A DNA stretch of 64,000 nt from Nitrospirota bacterium (GCA_043816165.1 JBDRIE010000025.1:2680-66679); one strand, 5' to 3'; positions 10,689 to 20,302 are shown, counted from the stretch's first letter. The notes: a model not told the origin generated them from the sequence alone. Numbers and translations: made by a program.

Positions 10689-13600
10689 CTATTTAGCCGC
10701 TTTTTCCAGCTGCATTCGGGCTTTTTCTGCCGGAGTCATATACGCCATACCTGTCATGTTTGAACCACCTATTATAGAGACAAGCTTACTTCCTCCATCA
10801 CTTTTTATAATTTCTTTGAAAATTGCTTCGAATTTGTTATAAGCTTTATTTATTTCATTTTGTCTCGCCGCTCCTTCTTTTGTTGTCACATCTTCAACCG
10901 GTTCTGAATTAAATATTAAGTTTGTTACTCTACTCAACTCTTCATTTTCGTATGCGCCTACCACTTTTTGGACGATTACATTCAACTCTCCGATAAACTG
11001 AGCTGGTGGAGTGTTAGGTGACACTATTGTCCCATTGTTTAGCGTTACTTCATCCATTCTCTGATATGTATCTTGTGCGGAGGTTCTTGCTTTTTCAAAT
11101 TTATTTTTCATTATTCCTTCAAAACGAACATAAGATTTCACAGCGTCCGCCAGTTTATCCGTGTAACCATACTCAGAAAGAGATTTAAAATATTGACTGA
11201 ATCCCGGGAATACGTTCGCATATCCCTCAATGGTCAAGAACTTTTTGCTACCTGTGGTTGATTTACATGCGTCTGTTATCACACCTGTTGAGGCAGGTGG
11301 TAAAAACCCGAACATGTCGTCATGATCCAGGTTTTCTCCATTTCTTAAATCTTTGTTAATACGATTTTGAGTACCATCGTTCGGTATTGCGTATTGCCAC
11401 AGGAATTTATCTACTGATGCTGTTGGTGTACTGTTCATTTTATTTCCTTCATCAAACCATTTTACCCATCTTTTGTAATCATCTACCGTAAATGTGTGCC
11501 CTTGTCCATCTTCACGGATAACTGTTGAACACAAATATTCCAGAATCGGGAATTTTTGAAGCATTTCCGAGTTCATATGAGCCATTCTGTCAAAACTCAG
11601 AATCGTTCTTCCGTACATATTTTCTGCCGCCACACCTTCTATCATGTAGTAGAGTTTTTCTTGCATGAATGCCTTTCCATATTCAAGAGAGAAGAGGATT
11701 AGACCCTCATACTCGTGTGGATCTACGAATTCGCCTCTTTTGTGCATGTCCAGAAGGACGGCAAGTCTTCGGCCCGGGCCTCCTTCTACACCTTCCAGCT
11801 CCTTACCTTTTTCGTAATAACTCTTTGCGTTCGATAGATATTGAGATTTTTGTTGTCTGTACCAATCGTTGAATTGGCCTTCTCCCCACAATGAATCGAT
11901 TGCGTCTTTCATAAAATCGAAACCTGTTCGGCTGTCTGTTGCGCTCATTTCGGTAGCGGGATCCCCATTTGTTGGAATTGGAATAGCTAGAGACGGATCA
12001 ACGAATCTATTTATATTTTTCCAAAAATCAATATTGTCCCATCTCATTTGTCCTTTTTCGTTTAAAACTATGAGGGCGGCTTTCATTTCATCTCTGTTGC
12101 TTGTTTTTTCCAATCTTCCTATGATTTCATATACACCTTTTTGGTCGAATGACTCCTTGAATTGCCCCATTTCTTCGTTTTCAGCTGACTGACCTATTCT
12201 TTGCATTTCAGGAGCCCAGAATGGTAGATGTTCACCTACTTTTGAGTATTTTTCCTTCTGTCTTCTTTCCCATCTTCTCTGATAATATTCCCACATTGAT
12301 TTTCCCATTTCCCAAAAATCTGTGACACTTAAGTATCTCGAATTTACCCACATTGATTTGAGCCAGCTTTGCTCGACTCTTTCCATACCTCCTACTTTGT
12401 GGATATCTTCGTAGGGAAGGGCTTCTTTGTAATAGGGTGGTTTATCAAGTTGAACTTTTGATTCCGGGACGGTTGTTGATTCTTCATCTTCGTCGGGAGT
12501 TTCGCCAGGTCCGGCTTGTGTGGTCTGTGTTGGCTCTGGATACTCCATTGGCTCTCCCAGCTTTGTTAACTCCGGCTCCGGCTCGTACTGTGCAGGTTGT
12601 GCCGGTTGTGCATCCTGGACTTGTCCCTTGTTTACCAATTCCATTAGATTTCTTGCGTTCACTTTTTCCCTGCGAACTGTGGCTCTTTTTTTTGCCGCTG
12701 GCGCTGCTGTTGGCGGAACTGCGGCTATTGCCGGTTCCGGTTCTCCCCAATTTGGATCGTTGTAACCAATGTCGTATTCTATTTCGTATTCACCATTGTC
12801 TAGAGGTTTTAGCTTTGCTGTTCTTCTTTTGCCATTTTCCTCGAAGTAGATTTCTTGTGTTTCTCCTTCGTTTGGAATCGTGACTGCATCCTGAGGTACT
12901 CCTCCGATTGCTCTAAACATTTCTTCACGTTCGGGTGATGACCCTTGGATAAAGCCAGTACATTCTTTGTTTCTTGCTTCTATAGTCCTTTTTATGGTTT
13001 CTTGCATCTTGTCTCCGGAAATATCTCTTTGATAATTATTTTTCTGGAGGAATGCTCCGAATTCTCCCAGTGCGAATTCTTTTTGCATTCTGTTGTGACG
13101 GAGTGCTGGCATAATCGAAGATGGGAGCGAATGTAATGATGTTTTCATTACTGTGTTGTCCAGCGCAACGTACCATTTACCGTTTTTTTCATATACTCGT
13201 TCTACTTTGAACACATCAGGCTGTTCTTTCCCGTTCGAGAACGTTTCTCCTTCCAGTTCTTGGAAGTTTTTGTAACCCAGTTCAAATCCATATTGTTCGT
13301 TGAAATTATCCGGAGATTCGATGTCTTCGTATCCATCTAATGTGTCTATTAAGCCAAGGAAGTTTTTGTAACTTGATTCTACTGTCTTCTCTTTCCCCTC
13401 TTCAACTATTGAATATTCGACCATTAGCTGGCCAGGTGATTGTGGTTCTACGATTGGCGAGCTCTCTTTTTCAAAGTAAATTTTGTTTATTTTTACTTGT
13501 TGTCGTTTTTGGCCGGATGCTCCCGTTTCCTTGTCGATTTCAAGTCCGGCTGTTGAATCTTGGCCTGTTTTTAGGAACCAAGTAGTGAGTTTTTGGACTT

Positions 13601-14477
13601 TATTCATGTCGAATCCTGCTCTTTTTGACAGGAATTTTAGCGATCGGAATCTTGATAGTATTTTTGTTAAATAATTTGTCCATTTTTCGTTCACTTCCGC
13701 ACTTTCTTTGCGGATTTTGTCTATTTCATCGTCGATTTCTTTGATTCGTTTTTGAAGTTTGTTGATTTCTGCGATGTTTGGGTTTTCTTTTTGTTTTTCT
13801 TTTTTAATATTTCCCAAAAGTCTTTCTTCCTCTTTGACTAACGTGAGCATTTGTTTATCAATTGCGTTGAGTTTTTCGATTAGTTCTTTTGGCGGTTGTT
13901 CAATTGCCCATTTTGTTTCTGTAGTTTCCGAGGCGGTTTCGGCTTTTGCTTCCGTCGTTTCTGCGGTTTTTGATATTGTCTTTTCTATTTCTTCCGGGGA
14001 TTCTTCCACCTTTCCCCCTCTTAGTCTTTTTGTTTCTTTTTTTGCTTTTTCTTTGTTGTTAATAAATTCCGAATTGATTCCTCCATCGATTCTTTTCAAC
14101 TTTTCGTGCAGTTCCGCTTTCTTTTCTTCGTCTTCGCCTTCAATCGTTTCTATCAAGGCGTTCACAAGGTGAAGCCCATAGTCTCCTCCAACAAATATTC
14201 GACCTTCAGCAATACCTTTTATGAGGTATTTGTAATCGCTTTTGGCCATTTTGTTTGGGTCCTTCGCAATTTCGTGAACCCTTCTAAAGGTTTTTTCTTG
14301 GAAATTATTGCCCTGTTTTTGGTAGAGTTCCGTGATTTTGTTTCCGGTTGTGCGGTTTTCTTTCTTCTTTTCTGTGTCAGTTCTTAGGTCGGTTTTCGAA
14401 AGCTCATCACACATCCGCACCTCTTCGGCTGTGAGATTTCTTTTGTCTTCCTGAGTTTTATCTTTTTCTGTGGTCAT
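10689..14477 (-). CDS. giant hypothetical protein (1262 aa), orphan operon gene 5
   Basis: Uninterrupted 3.8 kb ORF with no signal peptide or TM. K/E-rich coiled-coil-like N-terminal third, P/A/Q/E-rich linker, W/Y-rich C-terminal half. No family recognised. Confidence 0.8.
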   Translation of the reverse strand: MTTEKDKTQEDKRNLTAEEVRMCDELSKTDLRTDTEKKKENRTTGNKITELYQKQGNNFQEKTFRRVHEIAKDPNKMAKSDYKYLIKGIAEGRIFVGGDYGLHLVNALIETIEGEDEEKKAELHEKLKRIDGGINSEFINNKEKAKKETKRLRGGKVEESPEEIEKTISKTAETTEAKAETASETTETKWAIEQPPKELIEKLNAIDKQMLTLVKEEERLLGNIKKEKQKENPNIAEINKLQKRIKEIDDEIDKIRKESAEVNEKWTNYLTKILSRFRSLKFLSKRAGFDMNKVQKLTTWFLKTGQDSTAGLEIDKETGASGQKRQQVKINKIYFEKESSPIVEPQSPGQLMVEYSIVEEGKEKTVESSYKNFLGLIDTLDGYEDIESPDNFNEQYGFELGYKNFQELEGETFSNGKEQPDVFKVERVYEKNGKWYVALDNTVMKTSLHSLPSSIMPALRHNRMQKEFALGEFGAFLQKNNYQRDISGDKMQETIKRTIEARNKECTGFIQGSSPEREEMFRAIGGVPQDAVTIPNEGETQEIYFEENGKRRTAKLKPLDNGEYEIEYDIGYNDPNWGEPEPAIAAVPPTAAPAAKKRATVRREKVNARNLMELVNKGQVQDAQPAQPAQYEPEPELTKLGEPMEYPEPTQTTQAGPGETPDEDEESTTVPESKVQLDKPPYYKEALPYEDIHKVGGMERVEQSWLKSMWVNSRYLSVTDFWEMGKSMWEYYQRRWERRQKEKYSKVGEHLPFWAPEMQRIGQSAENEEMGQFKESFDQKGVYEIIGRLEKTSNRDEMKAALIVLNEKGQMRWDNIDFWKNINRFVDPSLAIPIPTNGDPATEMSATDSRTGFDFMKDAIDSLWGEGQFNDWYRQQKSQYLSNAKSYYEKGKELEGVEGGPGRRLAVLLDMHKRGEFVDPHEYEGLILFSLEYGKAFMQEKLYYMIEGVAAENMYGRTILSFDRMAHMNSEMLQKFPILEYLCSTVIREDGQGHTFTVDDYKRWVKWFDEGNKMNSTPTASVDKFLWQYAIPNDGTQNRINKDLRNGENLDHDDMFGFLPPASTGVITDACKSTTGSKKFLTIEGYANVFPGFSQYFKSLSEYGYTDKLADAVKSYVRFEGIMKNKFEKARTSAQDTYQRMDEVTLNNGTIVSPNTPPAQFIGELNVIVQKVVGAYENEELSRVTNLIFNSEPVEDVTTKEGAARQNEINKAYNKFEAIFKEIIKSDGGSKLVSIIGGSNMTGMAYMTPAEKARMQLEKAAK

Positions 14478-14482
14478 TTAGT

Positions 14483-19705: not shown

Positions 19706-20260
19706 TTAAATTTTTAATAATCTTGAGAATATTTCTGTCAGGGACTGATTGTGCCCTTCTTTTTCAGGGATTTTTTCGATCAAAAATTCGCGAACTTCTG
19801 ATGGATCTTGGCTGTTTAGCTGGATTGATATATCTACCACCAATTCTCCATCCACTTTTACGTATAGGGATTTTGTGTATGGCGGTTCGTAGACCAACCA
19901 GAACGATTTTATTCTTGTGAATGGATATTTTCTTTTTCCTACTTTGATTCCGATGTCCGAGATTGAGACTTCTACGTCTTTTGTCGGTTCTCTATTTACT
20001 AAATAATATACAATTGCAAAAACTACTATTGCCAGGGAGAAAGTCCATGCTTGATGAGCCATCCCCGTTACGATTGCAGCGATTAATAGTGCCGCAACAA
20101 TTACTTTCCAGATTTTCCCTCTTTTGTGTCTGAGGTGTTCCGGTGCAGTCCATGAAATTACGGTGTTGTCGAAGGCTGAGGGCTGGTTTTCTATATATTC
20201 CTTCTCCCTCACTTTTCTTATTTTTCTTTGCTTGAATTTATCTTTTAATTTTTTGATCAT
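19706..20260 (-). CDS. two-TM membrane protein (184 aa), orphan operon gene 1
   Basis: Basic N-terminus, two adjacent TM helices (IWKVIVAALLIAAIVTGMA, WTFSLAIVVFAIVYYLV), then a roughly 90-aa beta-rich domain. Topology resembles bacterial PH-like (YdbS/T-type) proteins, tentative. Confidence 0.7.
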   Translation of the reverse strand: MIKKLKDKFKQRKIRKVREKEYIENQPSAFDNTVISWTAPEHLRHKRGKIWKVIVAALLIAAIVTGMAHQAWTFSLAIVVFAIVYYLVNREPTKDVEVSISDIGIKVGKRKYPFTRIKSFWLVYEPPYTKSLYVKVDGELVVDISIQLNSQDPSEVREFLIEKIPEKEGHNQSLTEIFSRLLKI

Positions 20261-20293
20261 TTTTGTTTTGTTTTTGCATGAATTTTTCTAATT

Positions 20294-20302
20294 ATTATAC
20301 CA
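20294..20302 (-). promoter_or_regulatory. extended -10 promoter element for the orphan operon
   Basis: Minus-sense TGGTATAAT about 35 nt upstream of the ATG at 20260, in the 90-bp rpsR/operon spacer. Confidence 0.45.

Follow-up and report, generated by a model that had tools for sequence, protein, structure and literature searches.

As members of the Candidate Phyla Radiation, Peregrinibacteria have small genomes and are thought to live off other cells; their cell biology is deduced almost wholly from annotation, and about half of their genes lack an assigned function. Among described proteins, the closest points of comparison for the locus reported here include TcpH of Clostridium perfringens pCW3, which combines an N-terminal polytopic region with a hydrophilic C-terminal tail, and ZipA-type tethers, in which a globular domain is joined through a P/Q-rich flexible linker to a single transmembrane (TM) anchor. 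We analyzed a predicted five-gene operon (g1 to g5) in a stretch of 64,000 nucleotides (nt) taken from accession GCA_043816165.1 (JBDRIE010000025.1:2680-66679), hereafter the window, whose public record is labelled "Nitrospirota bacterium." An original prediction, made from the window's sequence, had proposed that the five genes encode a dedicated envelope machine. We found that the order of the genes is conserved among related genomes, that the operon has its own conserved promoter, and that its products comprise four membrane-anchored proteins and one soluble, acidic giant. Together, these may constitute a single membrane-bound complex.

The elements of the operon, numbered from the first nt of the window, are as follows:

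20294-20302, minus strand: extended -10 element TGGTATAAT, as read from the sequence, 33 nt 5' of the g1 ATG
19706-20260, minus strand: g1, an open reading frame (ORF) of 184 amino acids (aa)
18124-19695, minus strand: g2, an ORF of 523 aa
16885-18117, minus strand: g3, an ORF of 410 aa
14483-16876, minus strand: g4, an ORF of 797 aa
10689-14477, minus strand: g5, an ORF of 1262 aa

Successive ORFs are separated by 10, 6, 8, and 5 nt, the block occupies 9.6 kb, and rpsF, ssb, and rpsR lie immediately 5' of g1 on the same strand. The ORF sizes and junctions reproduce those originally predicted and are identical to the NCBI annotation (ABID64_01955 to ABID64_01935), where each product is termed "hypothetical protein." Other same-strand neighbors in the window are equally close-set, so that junctions of 5-10 nt are nothing unusual in a genome as compact as this one, and the spacing by itself does not exceed what chance would give. 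The extended -10 element that had been placed ~35 nt before the first ATG is also present, and in 57 of 66 related loci a TGnTAnAAT motif lies close to where g1 begins, for the most part 27-45 nt 5' of it. Since the motif has been kept near g1 across these loci, the operon possesses a conserved promoter of its own. A consensus scan showed no excess of promoter-like or terminator-like minus-strand sites within the five-gene block. The single transcript that had been claimed is therefore a prediction from the conserved promoter and from the lack of an excess of internal terminators, with both of which it is consistent. The translational coupling that had been raised as a possibility gains nothing from the short spacing, since this genome rarely uses Shine-Dalgarno motifs (found within 20 nt upstream of only 6 of the window's 51 ORFs). 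The leaders of the window ORFs are A-rich (44% A), which, together with the scarcity of Shine-Dalgarno-like motifs, points to initiation of translation that would be independent of Shine-Dalgarno pairing in this organism. At Rfam gathering thresholds, the window's sole match was a distant tRNA-Arg, and no RNA element was found at the operon.

To compare gene order, 80 loci from ~80 species-level Peregrinibacteria/Peribacteria genomes were sampled. Independent gene calls in relatives whose g4 is 57, 44, 37, and 36% identical to that of the window gave the same arrangement, i.e., rpsF-(ssb)-rpsR and five size-matched genes, followed by thrS in convergent orientation and by a recF-like gene. The same five-gene arrangement surrounds a relative of g5 with only 25% identity, and the pattern of gene sizes is alike in ~80 species-level loci. 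The g5 gene lies immediately 3' of g4 in 63 of 64 loci of sufficient length, with a split g5 as the lone exception, and g1 was found 1.5-5 kb upstream of g4 in every locus scored (55/55). Either rpsF or rpsR is upstream of the block in 51 of 52 loci; in ~10 loci the rpsF-rpsR pair is inverted, and g1 still follows the pair. By sequence, g1, g4, and g5 are recognizable everywhere, while a few lineages have four genes in the block and g3 is missing from a few lineages. In short, the five genes stay together after rpsR, and loss of synteny among them did not occur. On this comparative evidence, the conserved synteny and the conserved promoter, unlike the spacing, go beyond chance.

All named g4 homologues, and all 80 loci recovered in species-representative genomes, come from metagenome-assembled genomes (MAGs) assigned to Peregrinibacteria, Peribacteria, or "Gracilibacteria"/Patescibacteria. 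The named g5 homologues and the entire syntenic neighborhood likewise come from Peregrinibacteria/Peribacteria MAGs, and because of this agreement the Nitrospirota label of the source MAG is probably wrong. Searches of plasmids and phages by tblastn, and scans of viral contigs, recovered no relatives of the cluster, and its chromosomal position, flanked by rpsF-ssb-rpsR and thrS in ~80 genomes, is fixed; an origin from a mobile element or phage was therefore rejected. The operon is most likely inherited vertically and specific to the Peregrinibacteria/Peribacteria clade, where it is apparently universal, occurring in essentially every genome sampled. All related loci use the standard genetic code, and an alternative code was dismissed, as translation with code 25 brought no gain in them. 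Two contigs of one MAG (JACRIB01; loci L010 and L033) each carry a copy of the cluster, so that either the cluster has been duplicated or the bin combines more than one strain.

The strongest constraint within the operon lies in the membrane-spanning parts of g4 and the C-terminal domain of g5. These segments, and the weakly conserved middle region of g5, are placed as follows:

16211-16591, minus strand: g4 TM block 1 (residues 96-222), 71% mean identity among 39 homologues
15212-15751, minus strand: g4 TM block 2 (residues 376-555), 56% mean identity
12618-13637, minus strand: g5 middle region (residues 281-620), where the secondary structure of an AlphaFold2 (AF2) model shows several small modules resembling beta-barrels
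10689-12377, minus strand: g5 C-terminal all-alpha domain (residues 701-1262), with a predicted local distance difference test score (pLDDT) of 80-95

At least 200 homologues of g4 were found at E <= 0.001, and the best 120 all had values below 1e-100. The protein begins with a signal-peptide-like N-terminus and a small, variable, Cys-rich ectodomain, and continues with two TM blocks, a ~165-aa loop domain (loop D), and a ~240-aa helical tail (AF2 model, pLDDT 74.7). The densities of K+R in its loops, read by the positive-inside rule, fit seven TM helices with the N-terminus out and the C-terminus in; this pattern places loop D and the tail, probably, in the cytoplasm. The polytopic protein with signal peptide and tail that had been predicted is thus recovered, but seven helices fit rather than 8-10, and the four cysteines of the ectodomain occur in only 28-29 of 40 homologues (~70%). 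Two other cysteines, C243 and C318 of loop D, are invariant (40/40). Nowhere in the operon is conservation higher than in TM block 1, which has W145, R149, N150, N153, N167, K181, N195, S197, K202, and D206 as invariant polar residues; in TM block 2, R413, W418, S424, P425, P457, G467, W468, and W516 are invariant. Of these, R149, N150, N153, K202, D206, and R413 lie inside or beside helices. Identity in the soluble parts of the protein, outside the TM blocks, is 16-25%.

The soluble giant that had been predicted for g5, with a coiled-coil-like N-terminus, was likewise borne out, as 65 of 66 orthologues have no TM segment. The protein is acidic in every orthologue (median net charge -20); its N-terminus is variable and resembles a coiled coil, its middle is rich in beta structure, and a disordered linker of P/A/E/Q leads to an all-alpha C-terminal domain. 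An AF2 model of residues 271-1262 had a pLDDT of 71.5. Exhaustive searching gave a family of 516 cluster representatives at E <= 0.001, whereas word-indexed searches gave just 11-13 proteins. Among the best 150 of the family, nearly all are 1,000-1,500 aa long and have the conserved domain at the C-terminus. This domain is the only strongly constrained part of g5, with 35% identity vs. 13-15% for the remainder (15% in the middle region). In an alignment of 37 diverse members, its near-invariant residues were D815, D861, E924, R964, D1051-x-x-D1054 (the "DHDD" motif), and N1088.

Hydropathy and an alignment of 34 orthologues gave g1 a basic N-terminus with a conserved W-x-APE, a TM hairpin (residues ~47-89), a beta-rich domain of ~95 aa, and a terminal helix, an architecture present in 34/34; W37, W51, F120, L160, and E166 are invariant. 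The two TM helices and small beta-rich domain of the original prediction therefore hold, but its statement that no family signature could be recognized does not, as there is a weak signature of the pleckstrin homology (PH)-like type. Recurrent Pfam matches among the orthologues were to DUF6232 (13/34), DUF5673 (4/34, best 2.6e-6), and bPH_7 (2/34); the window protein scored 21.3 bits against DUF6232, below the cut-off of 27.4 bits. These matches suggest that this domain, predicted to be cytoplasmic, is a bacterial PH-like domain.

In contrast to the three genes recognizable everywhere, g2 and g3 diverge rapidly. The g2 family was recognized by an iterative hidden Markov model (HMM) in 50 loci, with a mean identity of orthologues to the window protein of 15-20%. 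A weakly hydrophobic helix lies at ~60% of its length (residues 301-320 in the window protein) and exceeds the TM threshold in 22 of 49 orthologues, while net charge ranges from -73 to +47. The protein had been described as Lys-rich with a central hydrophobic helix; the helix is retained to the extent just given, but the Lys richness is not conserved. The window's g3 opens with a globular N-terminal region (residues ~1-174); an extended linker of low complexity, rich in P/T/K/Q, leads from it to a basic patch and then to a hydrophobic anchor, rich in Gly/Ala, at the C-terminus. Its sequence family is detectable in three loci only, those of the closest relatives, and even against the closest relative the N-terminal 174 aa alone can be aligned. 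The g3 position is nearly always filled by a protein of 300-590 aa, and among the 39 positional equivalents listed, a majority finish with a basic stretch and a G/A-rich hydrophobic tail, with 23 of the 39 passing a hydropathy cut-off of 1.4 over the last 45 aa. Recurrence of the basic patch and Gly/Ala-rich tail across the clade agrees with the predicted tail anchor, and supports the view that proteins at this position are tail-anchored tethers. As to whether g2 and g3 may be tandem paralogues, their iterated HMMs cross-match at 1e-10 to 1e-26; BLAST with low-complexity masking showed no g3-g2 similarity other than at a split g2 gene in locus L060.

When compared with Pfam, NCBIfam, PHROGs, and PADLOC, none of the five window proteins scored above a curated cut-off, and no family match recurred across 40 members of the g4 family or 37 of the g5 family. 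Against PDB sequences, neither individual queries nor profiles returned anything beyond coiled-coil noise. By Foldseek, neither g4 nor g5 had a PDB match at E <= 0.001, nor did g5 have one in the BFVD viral library; the best match of g5, a Tudor domain at E = 0.07, was not significant, and its C-terminal domain had no Pfam, PDB, or BFVD match. A Walker A (P-loop) motif is found in none of g1-g5, in keeping with the prediction that the operon lacks an ATPase, and confident homology to characterized families did not emerge from any of the sequence libraries. A defense system was considered and rejected, as PADLOC gave only two matches (E = 0.019-0.035), both to coiled-coil regions of g5, and the cluster is universal and syntenic in the clade. 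A full-text literature search found no description of the cluster, and queries on PF19590, TrbL_3, MAG1210, or a described Peregrinibacteria cluster returned nothing relevant. In the Peribacteria genome paper (PMC4736985), type II secretion, type IV pili, and extracellular proteins that are large and Cys-rich are reported, whereas the operon is not; nor does the Vampirococcus paper mention it (PMC8080830). Comparison at the level of HHpred or AlphaFold DB may still link single domains to known superfamilies.

The reading we favor, to which we assign a probability of roughly 0.45, is that g1-g5 form one membrane-bound complex, in which g4 would be the working part within the membrane, g5 a subunit for catalysis or handling in the cytoplasm, and g1-g3 the tethers. 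The five proteins would assemble at the cytoplasmic face of the membrane. We take g4 as the working core because invariant Arg, Lys, Asp, and Asn residues lie in its helices and because conservation there is far above that of its soluble parts; such a pattern of constraint would be expected of a polar pathway or an active site, not of a mere anchor. A substrate might thus be moved or modified by its seven helices, through either a polar pathway or an active site lying in the membrane. The C-terminal alpha-domain of g5, with its near-invariant acidic cluster, could serve as the cytoplasmic catalytic or substrate-handling partner, held at the cytoplasmic face of g4 by g1 (through its TM hairpin and PH-like domain), g2, and g3 (through its head, linker, and tail anchor). 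Since none of its products is a nucleotide-binding protein, transport, if it occurs, would have to depend on membrane potential, a substrate gradient, or chemistry performed by g5. The two most plausible roles are, first, uptake and processing of host-derived building blocks and, second, synthesis and export of an envelope component, in either case by auxotrophic symbionts. The envelope machine of the original prediction keeps its giant cytoplasmic protein, polytopic core, and tethers, but its extracellular part was overstated, as almost all of the soluble mass is predicted, under the best topology model, to face the cytoplasm. Tentatively, and with less than even confidence, we suggest further that the operon represents a membrane machine of a new type, by which the Peregrinibacteria lineage would be defined, built from families and folds without characterized relatives and having no dedicated nucleoside triphosphatase; it might serve, for example, the uptake and processing of host-derived material or the building of an unusual envelope by auxotrophic symbionts.

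Several considerations weigh against a transporting or catalytic complex. We infer complex formation from synteny only, and no homology or fold match backs either transport or catalysis. The invariant polar residues in the TM helices of g4 could instead pack against helices of partner proteins. The invariant cysteine pair of loop D would suit an extracellular disulfide better, which conflicts with the charge-based topology. Given the speed at which g2 and g3 evolve, it is uncertain whether either has a fixed structural role. Finally, the AF2 models are of moderate confidence (pLDDT 72-75), and each search used the entire chain with all its domains, so that similarities at the level of single domains were possibly missed.

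Of the alternatives, the one that survives best, although we consider it unlikely, is that the operon encodes a scaffold at the cytoplasmic face of the membrane for division, morphogenesis, or chromosome handling, with g5 as a hub tethered by g1-g4 and with no transport at all. In its favor, nearly all of the soluble mass is predicted to be cytoplasmic, and the head, linker, and anchor of g3 resemble, in architecture only, a ZipA-type tether in reverse. The coiled-coil-like N-terminus and small beta-barrel modules of g5 also speak for this reading, as does the universal, vertically inherited occurrence of the cluster amid housekeeping genes (rpsF-ssb-rpsR, thrS, and the recF-like gene). However, a scaffold leaves unexplained both the 71% identity and invariant charged residues of the g4 TM helices and the acidic, near-invariant cluster of the g5 C-terminal domain, and none of the proteins is similar to any known cytoskeletal or divisome protein.

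A second alternative arises from leads toward Gram-positive conjugation machinery, namely a TcpD_dom match of g1, weak PF04610 (TrbL) matches, and PF19590 (TrbL_3) labels on g4 homologues. According to this explanation, which we regard as improbable, the operon would be a degenerate, chromosomally fixed type IV secretion system (T4SS) or conjugation channel of the Gram-positive type, with g4 as an extended VirB6/TrbL-like subunit like TcpH, other cluster proteins in place of the usual partners, and the ATPases lost or encoded elsewhere. The gross architecture of g4 does resemble that of TcpH, and PF19590 labels occur on 7 of the best 120 g4 homologues; these labels were precomputed, the Pfam copy that we scanned did not include the PF19590 model, and of two labels that were looked up, one had E <= 1e-5 and one was weak. 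PF04610 matched 2 of 40 g4 members, with a best E of 0.038, and NCBIfam TrbL/VirB6 matched none of the 40. A weak Pfam TrbL match in the g4 homologue P0018, at residues 391-441 of that protein, probably corresponds to TM block 2. More direct comparisons were made with 272 ORFs of pCW3 and R388, using profiles of g4, g1, g2, and g5. Searching with the g4 profile (hmmsearch) did not recover TcpH or TrwI/VirB6 from these ORFs, hhalign of g4 against TcpH and TrwI gave probabilities of 2.9% and 0.05%, and the g1, g2, and g5 profiles gave no signal; nor, as noted above, was there a PDB fold match. As for g1, the TcpD_dom match (E = 0.004) is under the cut-off and occurs in 1 of 34 orthologues only, VirB3 matches occur in 2 of 34 at E >= 0.019, and both span the TM hairpin only; identity of g1 as a TcpD/VirB3-like subunit was rejected on these grounds. 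No VirB4- or VirD4-like ATPase was found in the operon or window, where every ORF of at least 500 aa is accounted for as a cluster member, by a Pfam assignment, or by its place at the UvrA/PurH position of related loci, and no coupling protein (VirD4 or FtsK-like) or relaxase was found in the operon or the scanned window ORFs. Membership in type IV secretion was therefore rejected, as the operon and the window lack the defining VirB4-family ATPase, the operon and the scanned window ORFs lack a coupling protein and a relaxase, and the cluster is not at a mobile location. Homology of g4 to VirB6 is thus, on the present comparisons, a weak lead that the direct tests did not confirm.

Lastly, it is very improbable that the five genes are neighbors in a compact genome without shared function, since, common as close spacing and same-strand runs are throughout the window, the order and adjacency of these genes are kept across the species-level genomes down to 25% identity, the block persists where rpsF-rpsR is inverted and where genes are inserted nearby, and the conserved promoter stands in front of g1 only.

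Other features of the window, and the sixth gene of some related loci, are as follows:

9029-9889, minus strand: HNH-motif ORF
62843-63772, minus strand: HNH-motif ORF, a paralogue of the preceding one (51% identical, E = 7e-106)
10189-10479, plus strand: 96-aa ORF with a DnaJ-type CxxCxGxG zinc-finger (Pfam E = 4e-8)
21082-21744, minus strand: rpsF, 220 aa, with a ~100-aa C-terminal tail of EEPKK-type repeats
51784-55621, minus strand: adjacent DUF4012 (709 aa) and DUF3352 (568 aa) genes, a further pair of large genes without an assigned function
L005:16713-19391, related locus: sixth gene after g5
L020:16638-19166, related locus: sixth gene after g5
L091:15749-18481, related locus: sixth gene after g5

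In ~15 loci, a sixth gene directly follows g5 and encodes an acidic, soluble product of 790-910 aa (~850 aa), which neither matches a Pfam family nor resembles g5. The gene is absent from this window and may encode an optional subunit. While the convergent g5 and thrS genes of relatives meet end to end or overlap, here ~1.8 kb (8910-10688) is inserted between the two. The insert carries an HNH-like ORF and the 96-aa zinc-finger ORF, followed by a terminator-like hairpin at 10625-10666. Both HNH-motif ORFs of the window are preceded by a nearly identical motif, GTTGTATAA[T/C]CGCAT. Their homologues occur at differing positions and on differing strands in related loci, which suggests that they belong to a mobile, homing-endonuclease-like gene family. 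The S6 proteins of relatives are, like the rpsF product here, long (180-230 aa).

A constrained, syntenic, 9.6-kb operon with its own promoter is among the clearest candidates for a lineage-defining function in this clade. Orphan genes are common in these genomes, which tempers the weight of the finding, and the role proposed for the operon is read from its sequence. If the operon does encode a machine for transport, feeding, or envelope building, it would provide a concrete molecular handle on the way of life of these bacteria and would enlarge the catalogue of protein families, and perhaps that of folds. If, instead, the VirB6 relationship were true, the operon would be an unusual instance of a secretion-system core that has been retained as a housekeeping gene without its ATPases.

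Compared with known systems, g1 is most like bacterial PH-domain membrane proteins (YdbS/YdbT-type; bPH, DUF6232, DUF5673), with which it shares a TM hairpin, a beta-rich domain of ~95 residues, and an end helix, and from which it differs in that the window protein scores under the Pfam gathering cut-off. Since the function of the bPH/DUF6232/DUF5673-type families is unknown, this likeness supplies an architecture and no mechanism. The g3 protein is like ZipA-type tethers in that an extended low-complexity linker joins its globular domain to one membrane anchor at the end of the chain; unlike them, it has its anchor at the C-terminus, in reverse orientation, and has no sequence similarity to them. 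Similarly, g4 is like TcpH in size (797 vs. 832 aa) and in its N-terminal polytopic region and hydrophilic C-terminal tail of ~250 aa, and a minority of its homologues carry weak TrbL or TrbL_3 labels, but it has no significant profile, HH-suite, or fold similarity to VirB6/TrbL. Unlike a Gram-positive T4SS, the cluster is without VirB4, VirD4, relaxase, or cell-wall hydrolase partners, and whereas the VirB6/TrbL-type comparators belong to a mobile element, g4 is a core gene at a fixed position in the chromosome.

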